Source: Escherichia phage VEc74. Taken from it: 64,000 nt of DNA. Position 1 is the stretch's first letter. The number at the start of each line of letters is the position of its first letter. Made by a program: the position numbers and the translations under genes. Shown here one piece after another: positions 55,826 through 64,000 of the stretch. The stretch is from the sequence record MT932213.1; one strand, 5' to 3'. The notes under the pieces were generated by a model. That model searched no databases. It saw only the letters and a list, made by a program, of their open reading frames with translations, and had not been told where the DNA came from.

Positions 55826-56014
55826 TTAGTCCTTAGTTAAATTTTCTAAATATGTTTCTAAATCATTTTCAGCTTTATCGATAGATTTTACTAATTCGTA
55901 ATATGTTTCGGCATCTCCATAATCAGAAGATAATTCAAAAGACAAATCCTTTTCTAAACTAATAATTTCACCAACTAAAAATAATATTTCGTTCTTTTGT
56001 TCGCGAGTAATCAT
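55826..56014 (-). CDS. hypothetical protein
   Basis: 62-aa ORF. Confidence 0.4.
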   Translation of the reverse strand: MITREQKNEILFLVGEIISLEKDLSFELSSDYGDAETYYELVKSIDKAENDLETYLENLTKD

Positions 56015-56202
56015 AAGGAATTTATATAATCAATGAGTTCTTGTTCTTTATTATCGAATTCTTTAGAAAGTTCTTCATACTCGTTTGCACTAAAAGGACC
56101 ACATTCATTACAAACTTTTTCCAATTCACTATTTTTATCCATAACTTCGTGGATAAGAGAAAAGAGTTTGTCTTTTTGTTCTTTGCTTAAACTCATAACC
56201 AT
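56011..56202 (-). CDS. hypothetical protein
   Basis: 63-aa ORF. Confidence 0.4.
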   Translation of the reverse strand: MVMSLSKEQKDKLFSLIHEVMDKNSELEKVCNECGPFSANEYEELSKEFDNKEQELIDYINSL

Positions 56203-56420
56203 GTCACCTTTAAGCAGTATTCTTCTACATGCTGTTTACGACCTTTCTTATCAATAAAGGTATATTCAACGAATGTTCCAATGTAGTCTTTATCTACATC
56301 ATGTGGACTATTAATTGGACATTTAGTGCGACAAATGCGTTCCCATTGACGAATAATTACTGCCTTATTCTTTGGGTCATATGGATGTGGATAATGTATA
56401 TTCATAATAATGGTTCCCAA
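56193..56420 (-). CDS. hypothetical protein
   Basis: 75-aa ORF. Confidence 0.4.
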   Translation of the reverse strand: MGTIIMNIHYPHPYDPKNKAVIIRQWERICRTKCPINSPHDVDKDYIGTFVEYTFIDKKGRKQHVEEYCLKVTWL

Positions 56421-56869
56421 TCAACAATCACAATTTCTAATTTAGAGGAATACGTATCTAAAATCCCCTCAATAATATCCCAGTTCCCTTTACCTATGCC
56501 TGCACCAATCCTAGGCATATAGATTGTAGGTTTAATCAGTTTATTTTCACCGAACTCATTTAATTCTAACATACAATTCATTAAAGCGGAATATTCAAAA
56601 TGAGGTCCTGGTTGAAATTGAGTATAAAGATTAAAGCAGTAAGCTTTATGAGTCCTAAAGTATTTTTCATAAACTGAGTAAGAACCAAGTTTAGTTACAT
56701 CACCCCATTCAGTCTGTAATTTATCAGCTTCCAAAATTTTAGGGAAAGCTTTGGTTAATTGACCCGCTACGCCTGAACCCATAGTATGAAAACAATTGCA
56801 TCCATGCGCAATATTTTTACCTTCAGCGAAAAGGGCGACAATATCGCCCTTGATATATTTTACAATCAT
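56402..56869 (-). CDS. macro-domain protein (ADP-ribose binding/processing)
   Basis: 155-aa ORF with macro-like motifs (HGCN...MGSGVAG; IGAGIGKG). Confidence 0.5.
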   Translation of the reverse strand: MIVKYIKGDIVALFAEGKNIAHGCNCFHTMGSGVAGQLTKAFPKILEADKLQTEWGDVTKLGSYSVYEKYFRTHKAYCFNLYTQFQPGPHFEYSALMNCMLELNEFGENKLIKPTIYMPRIGAGIGKGNWDIIEGILDTYSSKLEIVIVDWEPLL

Positions 56870-57213
56870 CTAGTACTCAATCCTCGATTATAAGAATCTA
56901 CCAAACGGTCAACCATTGAATGACAAGCGGCTTTATCTTTCTCCTCCGCAACTGAACATTCTAAAGTATTCCACTTTTTAGCATATCGTTTTAATAATGT
57001 ATCGTTTTTGTATCTGCTTGATTTATCTCTTTCTCCGTCTTTATATGCATATATTAATTTCTGTGCAAATTCAGCTTGGCATGCTTTATTTTTCCCACAA
57101 TAATCTGCCGCAGTGCGGTTTACATATTCTCTAATTTCAGTATATGATGTATCTGCTGACGCAGAAGCAGAAAATGAAATTAATCCTATACATAAAACCA
57201 AAATTTTAGTCAT
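56866..57213 (-). CDS. secreted protein (vs position)
   Basis: 115-aa ORF with a signal peptide. Confidence 0.45.
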   Translation of the reverse strand: MTKILVLCIGLISFSASASADTSYTEIREYVNRTAADYCGKNKACQAEFAQKLIYAYKDGERDKSSRYKNDTLLKRYAKKWNTLECSVAEEKDKAACHSMVDRLVDSYNRGLSTR

Positions 57214-57751
57214 TTACTATTTCCAAAAGTTTATTATTTTTAAGGTAATTAGCCTTTTCTAGGACTTCAGAAGCATATTTAGAACCAGCTTTAACATTCC
57301 ATCCCGAATTATAAGAGGATATTGCTTTTCTTATATCGCCCTTATGTATATTTAACCAATAAGAAAGTTCAATGTACGCCCAGGAAGCTGAATTGGATCG
57401 TTTATTCAACATTCTTTTTATTTCAGCATCGGTCATATTATAACCAAGTTCCTTAACTCTCGCTCGCATAGTAGGCAAATAATTTTGGAACATTCCATAA
57501 GCGTGATGCTTTGGTTTAGATTTTAAATTAACTCCGCCAGAGCTTTCTTGCCATAAAATAGCAGCCATTATATGACCTAATCCGCTCTTGTGGATATTTT
57601 TATGTGTTTTATATTTTCCATCCTTAGAAAATTGTTCCCCGAATTGATACGCGTAACGCATGTTATCGAGTTGGACATTACTGAAAGTATGCTCGGAGCT
57701 ATGTGCCATCATTGAAATGGCCAATAGACCAGCGAGTAGTGCTTTTCTCAT
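57206..57751 (-). CDS. periplasmic lytic-transglycosylase-like protein (SLT domain)
   Basis: signal peptide plus ILWQESSG...GMFQ motif. Confidence 0.5.
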   Translation of the reverse strand: MRKALLAGLLAISMMAHSSEHTFSNVQLDNMRYAYQFGEQFSKDGKYKTHKNIHKSGLGHIMAAILWQESSGGVNLKSKPKHHAYGMFQNYLPTMRARVKELGYNMTDAEIKRMLNKRSNSASWAYIELSYWLNIHKGDIRKAISSYNSGWNVKAGSKYASEVLEKANYLKNNKLLEIVND

Positions 57752-57758
57752 GCTTACC

Positions 57759-58220
57759 TCATTGAGTTTTAATTACTGCTTTAGAAGCCTTTCCTGGTAA
57801 ACGACGACTGTTAATAATTGCCATCCTGCATTGAAGCGACGGGTCTTTGAACTTCGCATTAGGTTTACAAACTGTAAATCCAAGCCAAAGATTTCCATCT
57901 GTGATTTCTAAACGTCCAGGACGATATTCAACCCCATCAATAAAATCCTCGTCAATGTCAGGACGCGGAGGCATACTCAGGAATTCATTAACTTCTAAAA
58001 CATGGTCTTTTATTTTATGGAATAATTCAAAAACGTATGTCTCATCAATCTCCCGTTGAATTGCGCGATCAAGAAGATGCTGAGAATATTTTAGATGAAA
58101 CGATGAGACTCCTGCTGCTTTTGACGCCTCACGAATCTCATTGTTAATTTGACGAAACTCCGACTCAAAGTGACGACGAAGCTTATTTCGACGGATAAAA
58201 ACTTCTGTATTGATAGTCAT
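57759..58220 (-). CDS. regB: RegB endoribonuclease
   Basis: 153-aa ORF; size and position match T4 RegB. Confidence 0.7.
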   Translation of the reverse strand: MTINTEVFIRRNKLRRHFESEFRQINNEIREASKAAGVSSFHLKYSQHLLDRAIQREIDETYVFELFHKIKDHVLEVNEFLSMPPRPDIDEDFIDGVEYRPGRLEITDGNLWLGFTVCKPNAKFKDPSLQCRMAIINSRRLPGKASKAVIKTQ

Positions 58221-58247
58221 GTTATTCTCCTCTTAACTGATAGAAAA

Positions 58248-58277
58248 ATTATACCACAGTCAAGAGGAAAAGTAAAC
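58248..58277 (-). promoter_or_regulatory. T4-type early promoter
   Basis: GTTTAC, 17 bp, TGGTATAAT upstream of regB. Confidence 0.55.
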
Positions 58278-58279
58278 AG

Positions 58280-58600
58280 TTATTCTTTAAATCTAATCAA
58301 TTTATTCATAGACTTTGAAACTTCGGCACGAACCTCATGTAGATTTTTGAGCTGTTCAAGACGCTGCGTATAGTAAGCAATTTCATCTTCTTCGAGACAG
58401 TCCTGTGAATCTTCTTTAAGATAACGTGCATAGTCCTGGAAAGCTTTACGGACTACTTCCTGGAAGTCATCAAGACTTTGAATTTTCTTAGGAGCAACAG
58501 ATACACGACGAGGGGCAGTATAATACTCATAACCAAACCCTGCGCTTAATTGAGCCATTAGTATTTTTCCTCTGGTTGGAACACTGCACGACAAGCCCAC
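58280..58600 (-). CDS. hypothetical protein
   Basis: 106-aa ORF. Confidence 0.4.
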
Positions 58601-58860
58601 ATACTGGCTTCTTTGAGTTTCGTTTTAGCAATAGTTAACTGATCGAGGCTTTCGGCGTAATTCTTCGCGAGTTCATCATCTTCACAGCTATCAAATGCTT
58701 CCCAAAATTCATCGTATAAAGCATCAAAGATAAGTCCTAAACGAACTTCAGCGTCTTTAATAGCATTTACTTTACCGATTTTTTCGTCGGTATGTGGCTT
58801 ATAACCTTTAATATCTTCAATCATATTTGACTTCCTCACCAGTACATAAATCGTATTCAA
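58558..58860 (-). CDS. hypothetical protein
   Basis: 100-aa ORF. Confidence 0.4.
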
Positions 58861-59038
58861 CTAAACGAATAGGTTCATGAATGCCATATCCCTGAACAGA
58901 AATTTCTGTAGTAGGATAAATTCCATTAATATCACCCATGTTCCATGCTTCGTTAAATTGCTGTTCGCCTGAATTACTAAACCATTCGGCGAAAGCATTT
59001 AGCACATCTTCAGAACCTTCAATAATTATCTTTGCCAT
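58817..59038 (-). CDS. hypothetical protein
   Basis: 73-aa ORF. Confidence 0.4.
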   Translation of the reverse strand: MAKIIIEGSEDVLNAFAEWFSNSGEQQFNEAWNMGDINGIYPTTEISVQGYGIHEPIRLVEYDLCTGEEVKYD

Positions 59039-59400
59039 TACAAACTCTCGGTAAAGGTACGAGCGATAACATCGCGCTGCTGTTCCGGAGTCAGAGAGTT
59101 AAAGCGAACTGCATAACCGGATACACGAATGGTCAGCTGCGGATATTTTTCCGGATGCTTAACTGCATCTTCCAGAGTTTCACGACGCAGAACGTTAACG
59201 TTCAGGTGTTGACCACCTTCAATTTTAACTGTAGGCTGTGGCTCAATTTCAATTTCACGGGCATGCAAACCATAGAAAATTTCTGGGTCTACAAAAGAGT
59301 CCTCTTTAAAGGTTTTAGAAACGATAATTCGTGCTTGAATACCATCTTCAAAATAAATAGTACCTTTATGTGTGCCTTCAAGAATTTGATATGCTTTCAT
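59038..59400 (-). CDS. autonomous glycyl radical cofactor (GrcA/YfiD-like)
   Basis: 120-aa ORF with the glycyl-radical signature RVSGYAV near the C-terminus. Confidence 0.75.
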
Positions 59401-59407
59401 ATAAACC

Positions 59408-59740
59408 TCAATTAGAAAATAAATTTATCCAAGATTGTTCTTTAATTAAAAATGGCTCAGAATCATATGCCATTAAACTCTGTGTGATTAGTCCTTTAAA
59501 AGGCCCATCAATAAATTCCATGGTAAAATATGGAATTTTATTCATTAGCCGTGCATTAGGAGCAGTGCACAAAACTCTGCATCCTTTGAATACACCTTTT
59601 TGTAATTTGTATTGTTTGGGATAAAATTCGCTTAAAATGTTGTTATTTGCCAAAATTTCAAAATGATTCACCAATTTATTTTTAATAGTTTTTGGCGAAA
59701 AATAAAGATATTCGAAAAGCTGAGTGTCTGTCATCATTGC
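59408..59740 (-). CDS. hypothetical protein
   Basis: ORF from the internal ATG (MMTDTQ). Confidence 0.4.
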
Positions 59741-60273
59741 ATTCCAATTACGAAAAACTGTGGACGAGTAATACCACCAATACAACATTTAATATTACAG
59801 CAGCAGTGTACAGTGTCAATATGGACACTATAAATCTTATCCATATCAGGAGATTTGACAGGCTCATCAATTATATATAAAATTCGCGAAAGCGATAAAC
59901 CTCTGAACTTGCTTCCTTTATTACCAATAAAACTGCGCACAGAATCAGTAAATAAACGAAAACGTATATCATCATTAGAATAACGCGAAAATTCCTTTTT
60001 AATGTTATTTGCAGAAATTTTAGCGTAAGCTGAAGTATTAGAAAGAACAATAACTGTTCCGCCATCATACAACCAATTAGCAGCAAAGTTAGTCACAGCA
60101 ATTGATTTACCGGATTGACGTCCACCATCTAGTCGAAGTGTACAATACTGTTTAAGTAAGTCTTCAAATGGCGGGATATATTCGTTTTTACAAATTTCTT
60201 CTACTCTAGCATCAGAATGGTGTGTAAAAGCATTCATCAGGGATAGATAAGGACCAGTTAAAAATGTTCTCAT
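59734..60273 (-). CDS. P-loop NTPase-like protein
   Basis: Walker A GGRQSGKS and Walker B ILYIIDEP; start at the internal ATG (MRTFL); the Cys-rich C-terminal tail overlaps the next ORF. Confidence 0.4.
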   Translation of the reverse strand: MRTFLTGPYLSLMNAFTHHSDARVEEICKNEYIPPFEDLLKQYCTLRLDGGRQSGKSIAVTNFAANWLYDGGTVIVLSNTSAYAKISANNIKKEFSRYSNDDIRFRLFTDSVRSFIGNKGSKFRGLSLSRILYIIDEPVKSPDMDKIYSVHIDTVHCCCNIKCCIGGITRPQFFVIGMQ

Positions 60274-60309
60274 TTTATTCTCTCTAAATTTGGGCCATTC
60301 CATGGCGCA

Positions 60310-60341
60310 TGAATTGTCCATTTCTGTATTTACCCATTACC
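60310..60341. repeat. 32-bp direct repeat, copy 1 (flanks the ip cassette)
   Basis: TGAATTGTCCaTTTCTgTATTTACCCATTACC; 30 of 32 identical to the copy at 60946-60977. Confidence 0.6.
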
Positions 60342-60414
60342 GCACTTGGGCTCGACCTTATTACAGGTTGGCGGGAATCCCTCACAGAATCATGAGGTCC
60401 AGGTTGTTCCCATG

Positions 60415-60888
60415 TTATTTGAACGATTTAACGTACTGAATAGAACCTTTACTATTCACAAAGGCAATTTTACCATTTTTGTTATACATAGTAGCAGTAC
60501 GTTGATAGCCATAAGTTTGCTTACCAGATTGATAACCAACTAATGCAAAATTATCTTCACCCATTTTATTCTGTTTAGCGCGAATGCGTTCATGACCATG
60601 TGCCATAAGAACCTTAGCATCACCAGTTGCAATGGATCGACGAGTTTTTTCATCTTCAACTGTATTAACAAAGTCGTCAAATGAATCAAATTTAGCATGA
60701 GATTTATTATACAGTTTTCCATCTACTGCATAATTATATCCTTGTACATCCATCTCAACTTCTGTACCATCATCTAATACAGCAGTAATTTTCTGTCCTT
60801 TTTTAAATTTCAAAAGATCAGTAAAAGATTCAGCAATAATTTGAGAATTAATAGCTGCCTCAGTAATAAATTCTTGATATGTTTTCAT
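60415..60888 (-). CDS. internal protein with capsid targeting sequence (IPII-like)
   Basis: 157-aa ORF starting MKTYQEFITE, the CTS shared by T4 internal proteins. Confidence 0.6.
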   Translation of the reverse strand: MKTYQEFITEAAINSQIIAESFTDLLKFKKGQKITAVLDDGTEVEMDVQGYNYAVDGKLYNKSHAKFDSFDDFVNTVEDEKTRRSIATGDAKVLMAHGHERIRAKQNKMGEDNFALVGYQSGKQTYGYQRTATMYNKNGKIAFVNSKGSIQYVKSFK

Positions 60889-60945
60889 GTATATCCTTTA
60901 AATGTAAATAGTTTTATTCTTTAAGTTTTGGACAATTCATGCGTG

Positions 60946-60977
60946 TGAATTGTCCGTTTCTATATTTACCCATTACC
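60946..60977. repeat. 32-bp direct repeat, copy 2, preceded by a 10-bp stem hairpin
   Basis: TGAATTGTCCgTTTCTaTATTTACCCATTACC with GGACAATTCA/TGAATTGTCC hairpin at 60930-60955. Confidence 0.6.
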
Positions 60978-60996
60978 AGGTTCGAACTCGGCTTTA

Positions 60997-61561
60997 TTAA
61001 GAATTACCGCGGGCTGCATTAGCAACGGCGTAAGCGTACTGAACATTAGCGTCTTTAAACGTACCTTTAGAGGTATCTAGTTCTGCCTTAAAGCCACCTT
61101 TAGTCATAACCTCGGCGAATTCTTTACGGAAAGCCATTGCATCAAGACTTCTCCATGATGATTTGTGCTTGGCGAATTCAAGACCAGCGTAGTTGACAGC
61201 CTTAGCTAATTTATTATCAATAACCCATTTACCAGCTTTAGGCACAAACACCGGGCCTTTCTGTTTAGAGAACAGTTTTAAATTCCAGCGACGAAGGTCA
61301 CCGTCGGCTTTAACAAAAGCTGCGTCTAAGTTACTAGCAACAACATCCTGAATATGGCCAAATTTAAGCCCATCAACTTCAATATTTAGATCGGTACGCC
61401 AGCGAAGTCCTTCCCAAGCGAAAGCTTTAAAGTCGGAAGCCTTTGTAGCTAAGTACCGTTCAATAGGAGCCGTTTCCCGATCGATAGGTCCACTCATCTT
61501 TATTAATGCCTTTGGCCTTTTCCACAGAAGCTTCAGCGATAAATTCTTTATACGTTTTCAT
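60997..61561 (-). pseudogene. internal protein III-like gene with its CTS leader in a different reading frame
   Basis: 33-codon ORF MKTYKEFIAEASVEKAKGINKDEWTYRSGNGSY (61460-61561) overlaps the 166-aa body ORF (60997-61497) in another frame; the junction lies at a G-run. Confidence 0.45.
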
Positions 61562-61577
61562 GTGTTTCCTTTAATTT

Positions 61578-61895
61578 TTATTCTTTAGGGAAGTTTTTAG
61601 AATATGCATCATAAAGCTTATTTCCAATACGGCGGAAAACTCTAGCCGCAAAACGATTTTCTGGGTTTTTAATCATGATTTGCATCATATAAGTACCCGC
61701 GTCAGAAAGAGCTTCTTCATAGTACCCATTAATTTCTTTAAGAGTCCTACGTTTACCACCAGGACCATCAACAGTGATTTTCCATTTACCTGTAGAAGTG
61801 CGACTTGGCGGCTCAACTTGTTCAATCCAGATATAACCACCTTCTACACGTTGTCCTGCAGCAGATTCTGCAATAAATTCTTGATAGGTTTTCAT
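61578..61895 (-). CDS. internal protein with capsid targeting sequence
   Basis: 105-aa ORF starting MKTYQEFIAE. Confidence 0.6.
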   Translation of the reverse strand: MKTYQEFIAESAAGQRVEGGYIWIEQVEPPSRTSTGKWKITVDGPGGKRRTLKEINGYYEEALSDAGTYMMQIMIKNPENRFAARVFRRIGNKLYDAYSKNFPKE

Positions 61896-61949
61896 GTGTT
61901 TCCTTTAAATATTTTAATTAGTAATTTGTCTCTTCAAGTAACTGTGAAT

Positions 61950-61979
61950 ATACTATCACAATTCCAAGAGAAAGTAAAC
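61950..61979 (-). promoter_or_regulatory. T4-type early promoter
   Basis: GTTTAC, 17 bp, TAGTAT. Confidence 0.45.
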
Positions 61980-61983
61980 AACT

Positions 61984-62952
<969 letters not shown>

Positions 62953-62971
<19 letters not shown>

Positions 62972-63315
62972 TCACTCACAAACTCTTTCATTGACTCATT
63001 TTCAATATAAGACATGTAGCTATTATATTCCTTTAATTGTATTTTGTAATCCTTTTTTCTTTGCCAATTTATTTTAAAATTATCATAATGAAAATATAAA
63101 ATGATACCAAAGAATGAAAACAATGAAATAATTTTAGTATAACAAAGCTCACTCCAAACTTCTGTTATATTTACTGTGCCGTCGATGTTTAAAATAAGAC
63201 AGTCAATTAACAATCCAAAAAGACTACCCGCAAGAGCTGCAGCCAACGCCACAGCAAAAATTAAAAATGACTCAGGAAACGAATATTTGACTTTATTTAG
63301 TTTTGGCTTTTGCAT
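62953..63315 (-). CDS. membrane protein
   Basis: 120-aa ORF with two hydrophobic segments. Confidence 0.45.
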
Positions 63316-63689
63316 CGTGATTCCTTAACAAATTTCATAATTTCATCAAATTCATACGCAGCAAGTTTAAGCTGATGTTCCTTTTTAATCTTTTTACACT
63401 GTGCTTTCCAATCACGTACGCGTTTACGATAATGTCTTCCTTGATACCAGTATCCTACCCAATTTACGGGTACTAATAAAAGTGGAACTATTAATGGAAG
63501 AATTAGCATTAACACAAGTATTTCGCCAGAATCAATATCAGTCATAACATCTAAAACACCTCCAATAATCAATAGAATTACAAATGATATAAGTATAACA
63601 GGACCTATTAATACATCAGTAGAAATTATCTGACGCTTTAATTCATACTTCAACGGTTTACTTGGAAGGTATAGTGATGGTTTTGACAT
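63297..63689 (-). CDS. membrane protein
   Basis: ORF from the internal ATG (MSKPSLYL) with two TM segments. Confidence 0.45.
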   Translation of the reverse strand: MSKPSLYLPSKPLKYELKRQIISTDVLIGPVILISFVILLIIGGVLDVMTDIDSGEILVLMLILPLIVPLLLVPVNWVGYWYQGRHYRKRVRDWKAQCKKIKKEHQLKLAAYEFDEIMKFVKESRCKSQN

Positions 63690-64000
63690 ATTCTCTACAT
63701 TCCTTAACAAATTTTTCTAGTAATAAATCACTTTCAAAATTAGGATTTTCCACTAATTTATCAAAAAGATCATCAACAATATTCAAGATATTTCTTTTAC
63801 TAAGAATACGTTTATTTTCATGCTTCGTTTCAGAATCAACTATAAGAGTAAAGAAATATTTCTTTCCCTGAAATTTTACCGTAGTATCAATATAGAATAA
63901 ATTTGACTTTTGTAAGTTACGTTTAAACCATGCGTCACTTAAACTATAAACACCGAGATAATCAAAATCGTCGTTTAAATAACAAACTGTCCATTCAGGA
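63670..64000 (-). CDS. hypothetical protein, 5'-truncated by the window edge
   Basis: open minus-strand frame from the window end to a stop at 63670-63672; hand-translated. Confidence 0.35.

Follow-up and report, generated by a model that had tools for sequence, protein, structure and literature searches.

Gene content of the e-vs.8 interval

The window analysed here comprises 64,000 nucleotides of Escherichia phage VEc74 (MT932213.1), and its e-vs.8 region is assigned to a T4-like phage (Tequatrovirus). The segment 59700-62000 is matched by 880 phage records, among which the best full-length matches (ECO07P2, SCS4, Shfl2, ECML-134 and PST) are 92-98% identical. The genes of the interval lie on the minus strand and, read in that direction, begin with the lysozyme gene e (62478-61984), an internal protein gene, ip, of 105 aa (61895-61578; PHROG 3966) and a frameshifted homologue of ipIII (60997-61561; PHROG 5341); these are followed by copy 2 of a 32-bp repeat, the gene ip4 (60415-60888), copy 1 of the repeat, vs.8 (59734-60273; 179 aa; PHROG 1488), vs.7 and vs.6. 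The ipIII homologue has lost its N-terminus; it carries a deletion near 61470-61475 of 17 nt that are present in ESh24, G4498, ECO07P2 and T4, its reading frame is shifted after 33 codons, and it is probably a pseudogene in VEc74. The gene bracketed by the repeats, described in the earlier note as IPII-like, proves instead to encode the internal virion protein Ip4, matching PHROG 3155 and Pfam DUF7412 at its full length of 157 aa and being named Ip4 in the annotation of Shfl2 and T2. Beyond the interval, vs.6 (59038-59400, minus strand) encodes a GrcA/YfiD-like autonomous glycyl-radical cofactor with the motif RVSGYAV, a T4 feature described before and recorded in the annotation of both T4 and ESh24.

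The interval from e to vs.8 is hyperplastic: 13 loci show at least eight different gene orders. Its fixed right-hand border is the leader of vs.8. Another repeat family (D1), which spans the ribosome-binding site (RBS) and capsid-targeting sequence (CTS) of ip genes, is found on the minus strand at 60852-60906, 61525-61579 and 61859-61913. Internal proteins are injected anti-restriction factors and, because Ip1-3 each block a different GmrSD enzyme (PMC12373910), the gain and loss of ip genes shapes host range.

Extent of the repeat

The two copies of the direct repeat lie on the minus strand at 60310-60341 (copy 1, TGAATTGTCCATTTCTGTATTTACCCATTACC) and 60946-60977 (copy 2, TGAATTGTCCGTTTCTATATTTACCCATTACC) and are identical at 30 of 32 positions, in agreement with the earlier note. 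Their similarity is not random: no further match to the 32-mer at three or fewer mismatches occurs in the 64 kb, none was obtained in 100 dinucleotide-preserving shuffles, and a gapped local alignment of the two regions scores 67.5, where 500 shuffles gave 15.6 +/- 2.5 with a maximum of 35. Ungapped extension gives 59 nt at 78% identity (60305-60363 against 60941-60999; repeat family D2), and the gapped alignment, which pairs 60274-60341 with 60913-60977, begins with GGTAAT and ends with AGAATAAA when read on the coding (minus) strand. The homology is about 65-68 nt, longer than the 32 bp first noted, and identity falls from 94% within the 32 nt to roughly 80% over about 65 nt. So extended, copy 1 takes in the last 68 nt of the vs.8 leader and stops at the base that precedes the vs.8 start codon, and copy 2 sits in the spacer between ipIII and ip4.

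Copy 1 belongs to the vs.8 leader

Upstream of vs.8 lies a non-coding leader of about 140 nt, and copy 1 forms its 3' part. This leader is present in essentially all T4-like coliphages, after ip4, ipIII or denV alike (in T4 it comes after the denV stop codon), and 554 records cover at least 80% of it when it is taken as 151 nt. It holds a conserved non-coding element (60324-60414, minus strand) made up of a covarying hairpin, P1 (60373-60411, minus strand), and an invariant 33-nt core (60336-60368, minus strand); the element lies upstream of the 32-mer and overlaps its first bases. In the T4 reference (NC_000866; locus L003 2254-2913) vs.8 is 219 aa long and starts inside this element. That frame is closed in VEc74 and most relatives, and no frame through the leader is conserved across genera; the leader is therefore non-coding. 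The relatives, and a PHROG profile whose 177 positions suit the 179-aa form, point to a protein of about 179 aa with the start MRTFLTG. A leader peptide and an N-terminal extension of vs.8 were both rejected, there being no frame with a start conserved across genera and no sharing of the T4 extension.

To interpret the 32-mer, the leader was aligned with those of T4-like phages further removed from VEc74, with vs.8 proteins of 61-88% identity. The homologous block in these phages reads GGG-TTTACA-(16/17 nt)-AATTAT or TAACAT, and in a Mosigvirus-type phage (locus L016) the arrangement TTTACA-16-AATTAT is promoter-like by a simple scan. In VEc74, T4 and copy 2 the corresponding block is TAAATA with a spacer 4-5 nt shorter, and a promoter scan calls no promoter-like site at either copy. 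On these grounds the 32-mer is best read as a decayed sigma70-type early promoter followed by a quasi-palindrome. In copy 1 it contains the end of the core (GGTAAT), the GGG strand that closes the core, and the decayed early-promoter block (TAAATA ... AATTCA).

Other identities were considered for the 32-mer and its surroundings. A working promoter was rejected, as the scan calls none there, and inspection by eye finds neither a MotA box nor a match to the late-promoter sequence TATAAATA. An intrinsic terminator on the coding strand was rejected, since there is no U-run and the sole match in the scan is antisense (plus strand, 60929-60956); ARAGORN finds no tRNA or tRNA remnant in the window. 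A search of 56000-64000 against Rfam 15 returned no match at E < 1 except a spurious lncRNA. The suggestion in the earlier note of a shared regulatory or RNA-processing element holds as far as derivation from a regulatory intergenic cassette is concerned, but the scan finds no promoter-like site in it and Rfam no known RNA family.

Distribution and form of copy 2

Copy 2 occurs in only 15 records, representing about 12 phages. The 10 sequences inspected all have it beginning at the ipIII stop codon (TAATAAAGCCGA...); in VEc74, 24 nt that include AAAGGA separate it from the ip4 ATG. Scored with a covariance model of the entire leader, copy 1 reaches 100.6 bits (E = 4e-25), within the range of 55-101 bits for complete leaders elsewhere, and copy 2 only 11 bits (E = 0.84), since it does not have the conserved hairpin module. 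The left end of copy 2, compared in register with the leader module, matches at 11 of 20 positions, and the module may have been lost either through decay in place or through a clean 23-nt deletion (TAATAAGGTCGAGCCCAAGTGCG) in the core. Where W143 has copy 2, the T4 ipIII-ipII spacer has a normal promoter-hairpin. At the two variable sites, copy 2 of SCS4 and of ESh24 has the copy-1 state, and recombination or gene conversion between copy 2 and copy 1 may still be occurring.

The earlier note had described a hairpin with a 10-bp stem at copy 2 and a degenerate counterpart at copy 1, and both are borne out. The copy-2 palindrome (60930-60955) is perfect, with a stem GGACAATTCA/TGAATTGTCC, a 6-nt loop and a predicted energy of -13.6 kcal/mol as RNA; the quasi-palindrome at copy 1 (60293-60319, minus strand) has the form GGACAAUUCAUG-CGC-CAUGGAAUGGCC at -7.5 kcal/mol, its arms being entered in our feature table as GGACAATTCATG-CGC-CATGGAATGGCC. 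Compared with shuffles, the copy-2 region folds unusually well (z = -2.5), and the stability of the copy-1 unit is unremarkable (z = -0.06). Three positions distinguish the 3' arms of the copy-2 and copy-1 hairpins, exactly those that perfect the palindrome, and this pattern has the apparent signature of templated quasi-palindrome correction. In T4 the early promoters that precede ipIII and ipII are overlapped by hairpins, which the arms ACAATTC/GAATTGT of the quasi-palindrome resemble.

The copy-2 loop exists in two orientations, CACGCA in VEc74 and TB004 and TGCGTG in G4498, ECO07P2, W143 and JE01. The hairpin of VEc74 is inverted with respect to that of G4498, the loop being the sole difference over 114 nt, and that of TB004 is inverted relative to W143 and JE01; the 26-nt palindrome has therefore flipped twice independently. 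In ESh24 an A-T pair of the stem is replaced by G-C through a compensatory change, and selection could be acting on the hairpin. Because the copy-2 hairpin is flipped in VEc74, a 15-bp perfect inverted repeat (I11; 60306-60320 and 60929-60943) brackets ip4, across which inversion of the ip4 segment could in principle take place.

The copy-1 quasi-palindrome includes a small hairpin, GCCAnGGAAUGGC (60294-60306, minus strand), which lies in the 5' UTR of vs.8 and is kept across T4-like genera with GGA in its loop, the first base of which varies among them. It is a possible protein-binding site of the CsrA-site type.

Rearrangement at the locus

The genes carried between copy 2 and copy 1 differ among phages: ip4 in VEc74, ECO07P2, G4498, ESh24, SCS4 and Shfl2, ipII with intact denV in JE01 and VIPECOOM01, and ipII with decayed denV in W143 and TB004. 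The type of cargo does not track the subtype of copy 2, since Shfl2 combines a W143-type copy 2 with ip4, and crossovers within the RBS/targeting-sequence region and vs.8 would explain the cargo swaps equally well. Between ipII and the vs.8 leader of W143 only the fused start and end of denV are left (L021 2476-2640), with an intact denV beside e, and in TB004 the open reading frame is truncated to 50 aa (L022 3033-3185).

The only rearrangement seen against a near-identical relative is provided by the viral contig L010, which is about 99% identical and equals the window minus 673 bp (60889-61561), that is, minus ipIII and copy 2. This indel ends inside the repeat AAAGGAAAC|ACATGAAAAC, spanning the ip RBS and capsid-targeting leader of family D1. 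When the copy-2 context and a synthetic junction were used as queries, a hybrid deletion junction between copy 2 and copy 1 was absent from 50,697 phage records, and the best matches to the synthetic junction were all split into two pieces.

These observations bear on the proposal in the earlier note that the repeats bound a recombination cassette. The hyperplastic locus and the differing cargo agree with it, but the deletion junction is missing from the records searched and the one indel seen against a relative about 99% identical lies at D1 instead. Nor does the repeat as such delimit an ip4 cassette: copy 1 belongs to the leader that vs.8 has universally, copy 2 goes with the ipIII 3' end and in about 12 phages only, and ip4 is found without copy 2 in SA21RB, L010 and L013.

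A conserved element in the vs.8 leader

The core of the element, ACCUGUAAnAAGGUCGAGCCmAAGUGCGGUAAn, is invariant over its 33 nt, bar three variable sites and rare singleton variants. The outer stem of P1 persists in at least six sequence versions (GGGAA/UUCCC, GGGAG/CUCCC, AAAGG/CCUUU, AAAGC/GCUUU, GGGG/CCCC, GGAAC/GUUCC, GAGGG/CCCUC, GAAUG/CAUUC), with both-sided changes in all five pairs and 93% of cells paired, and the inner stem shows a C-G to U-A change in L043. The covariation score of P1 was reached by none of 500 shuffles, and slid controls gave at most 0.17 against 0.35. Minimum free energies of the element are no better than those of shuffles (z = 0.31, 0.06 and -0.53), so only the covariation of P1 argues for its folding; the helices proposed inside the core are without any variation in the alignment.

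The distribution of the element extends well outside the T4-like phages. A 40-nt core occurs in 1,060 of the 50,697 phage records, almost always once per genome; among its carriers are T4-like phages infecting Escherichia, Shigella, Klebsiella, Enterobacter, Yersinia, Salmonella, Citrobacter and Erwinia, every rV5-like Vequintavirus (119 records, with no empty site among them) and 45-kb phages such as Ivi. Copies in other loci are placed at L016 3835-3942, L018 2469-2552 and L019 2467-2545. A sigma70-type promoter lies 0-80 nt downstream of the element in L016, nimi and Ivi, and in a KPV15-like Klebsiella phage (L030) the element stands between two ip genes. A metagenomic T4-like contig (L047) has two tandem copies (307-416 and 443-526; 70 and 42 bits), and in one rV5-like contig and one siphovirus-like contig different direct repeats, about 25 nt long, lie on either side of it (L041 around 1113-1290; L026 5230-5560).

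Searches of 5,426 E. coli genomes gave no match to the core even at E = 10, and there was none in a set of one genome per GTDB species, so that mimicry of the host, or an origin in it, was rejected. The single 'plasmid' match, at 100%, is to a 137.6-kb record that, by its size, may be a Vequintavirus-like phage genome. Rfam searches with the element alone and with the Vequintavirus copy yielded nothing relevant (all E > 4, unrelated families), and a literature search with the sequence string of the core yielded no paper; a RegB paper in which denV is mentioned deals with the Shine-Dalgarno site of that gene and not with this element.

No U-run follows the element on the coding strand and no consistent open reading frame passes through it; terminator-like sites were not found in L016, L018 or L019. 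Since its core helices never vary, its free energies resemble those of shuffles and neither U-run nor reading frame accompanies it, it may act at the level of DNA, for example as a protein-binding site. Our best guess is that the element would act as a 3'-end signal of the upstream transcription unit, through processing, termination or insulation, and would travel with early-promoter cassettes. More tentatively, it is possible that the element represents a new class of phage RNA or single-stranded DNA signal (for processing, termination, insulation or factor binding) that moves with such cassettes between unrelated virulent coliphages, the 32-bp repeat being a footprint of that mobility.

Origin of the repeat

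In proposing how the repeat arose we draw on the promoter-early stem-loop (PeSL) cassettes described in T4-type phages (Arbiol et al. 2010, PMC2839356; Comeau et al. 2014, PMC4122927). Our favoured contention, which we consider probable, is that the 32-bp repeats are the best-kept portion of a partial duplication of the vs.8 leader; they would be a scar, and possibly a minor substrate, of shuffling, and neither a boundary of ip4 nor a working promoter. The leader itself would be a composite PeSL-type cassette of stem-loops, early promoter, 5'-UTR hairpin, RBS and start codon, whose early-promoter block would have decayed in the T4 lineage, VEc74 included, while being kept in sister genera. In a small clade, a partial second copy would then have been placed directly after the ipIII stop codon without the upstream hairpin module, most likely by short-homology or illegitimate recombination or by template switching. 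The quasi-palindrome of copy 2 would subsequently have been converted into a perfect, flippable hairpin, leaving two copies that bracket whatever sits between ipIII and vs.8, be it ip4 or ipII with or without denV. As judged from comparison of the sequences, the duplicate has probably lost any promoter activity and would have no present function. A counterpoint is that the 32-mer is 94% identical between the copies, whereas the neighbouring sequence is far more diverged or deleted, and therefore a recent patch duplication or gene conversion is needed.

The repeat might alternatively be a shared cis-acting RNA element, the transcribed hairpin of which stabilises or processes the flanking mRNAs (vs.8 and ip4 or ipII) or tunes their translation. 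It is consistent with this that none of the 10 copy-2 sequences has lost the hairpin, ESh24 showing a compensatory change of one pair, that the copy-2 region folds better than shuffles (z = -2.5), that other genera also keep the GCCAnGGAAUGGC hairpin of copy 1 and that the orientation of the repeat is always that of the genes. We nevertheless regard the explanation as unlikely: most phages with ip4 or ipII (among them SA21RB, L010, L013 and T4) are missing copy 2, the copy-1 unit is not unusually stable (z = -0.06), inversion of the loop without other change argues against a loop recognised by its sequence, templated correction of a palindrome can mimic compensation, and the coding strand has no U-tract and so no intrinsic terminator.

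That the copies are active crossover sites, allowing ip4 to be duplicated, swapped or cut out (as a mini-circle, for instance), is in our view distinctly unlikely, in spite of a precedent in RB49 and phi1, where ORF-flanking PeSL pairs recombine and yield mini-circles (PMC2839356). The varying cargo and the copy-1 states in SCS4 and ESh24, which hint at gene conversion between the copies, point in the same direction as this precedent. The homology available is short, however (32 nt at 94%, or about 65 nt at roughly 80%), the hybrid junction was found in 0 of 50,697 records, the indel in the closest relative uses the RBS/CTS repeat, and the mismatched cargo of Shfl2, like the swaps in general, is explicable by crossovers in RBS/CTS and vs.8. 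Far more improbable is a small peptide (MGKYRNGQF...) encoded in two copies by the repeat. Both substitutions in the 32-mer are synonymous in its frame (TAC/TAT and AAT/AAC), but two such sites amount at best to about a 1-in-9 coincidence, the ATG has no preceding Shine-Dalgarno sequence, the 5-nt difference in length alters the frame of the conserved 3' block, and the leader frames have no conserved start and are interrupted or shifted between genera.

On our preferred reading, the 32-bp repeat is a mark left by shuffling and does not drive it; the documented rearrangement used the ip RBS/CTS repeat. The repeat itself is ordinary and the neighbouring conserved element is the notable part; it may outweigh the repeat in importance, being single-copy, unannotated, nearly invariant and non-coding, and present in more than 1,000 sequenced phages of unrelated families.

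Comparison with known systems

The changes within copy 2 are reminiscent of Ripley's model, reportedly first worked out in T4, in which template switching gives rise both to templated mutation of quasi-palindromes and to inversion of hairpins. In common with it, the 3' arm of copy 2 is changed only at the positions that perfect the palindrome, and the hairpin occurs in both orientations within otherwise near-identical sequences. The model does not provide a full account, since it covers the change to the hairpin and not the duplication of the segment, and the likeness here comes from comparison of sequences alone. The locus also resembles rho-independent terminators, in that a G+C-containing hairpin lies between two genes, and the P1 hairpin is marked as a terminator in SA21RB (WebGeSTer annotation); unlike such terminators, neither hairpin is followed by a U-run on the coding strand.

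Short homologies at the borders of IP genes let these anti-restriction genes shuffle, and Repoila et al. (1994, cited in PMC4122927 and PMC12373910) are said to have described both a conserved homology in the 5' leaders of IP genes and the polymorphism of IP loci among T-even phages. The present case shares with that system the locus and the idea of shuffling, and D1 bounds the 673-bp indel of L010. It differs in that the leader homology of IP genes consists of the RBS and the first 11 or so codons (MKTYQEFI...), while the 32-mer lies outside D1 and comes from the vs.8 leader.

The closest analogue is the PeSL. Like a PeSL, the vs.8 leader combines a stem-loop, a T4 early-type promoter, an RBS and a start codon, repeated between small non-essential genes, and the homologous block of the sister genera fits the PeSL promoter consensus of T4 and PST, TTTACW-N17-TAYWAT (PMC4122927). 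The location is likewise hyperplastic and adjoins indels and gene replacements, as the variety of gene orders attests; the stem-loop is present, as a perfect 10-bp stem in copy 2, imperfectly in copy 1 and as P1 in the full leader; and each unit leads into the Shine-Dalgarno sequence and start codon of the gene downstream, vs.8 for copy 1 and ip4 for copy 2. Unlike in a PeSL, a usable -35/-10 pair is missing from both VEc74 copies, the stem-loop is placed 3' of the -35 relic, copy 2 is no more than a fragment, and no recombinant between the copies was found in the 50,697 phage records; the full leader also adds to the PeSL description an invariant hairpin module that is common to non-T4 phages. 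'Degraded' PeSLs adjoining indels have been described (Comeau et al. 2014, PMC4122927), and the repeat is a degraded PeSL duplicate of the kind already known from hyperplastic T4-like regions. Shuffling by way of PeSLs and IP-locus homology is an established idea (PMC2839356, PMC4122927), and the first reading of the sequence was partly right, having correctly placed the repeat among the regulatory repeats of a shuffling region while mistaking its detail.
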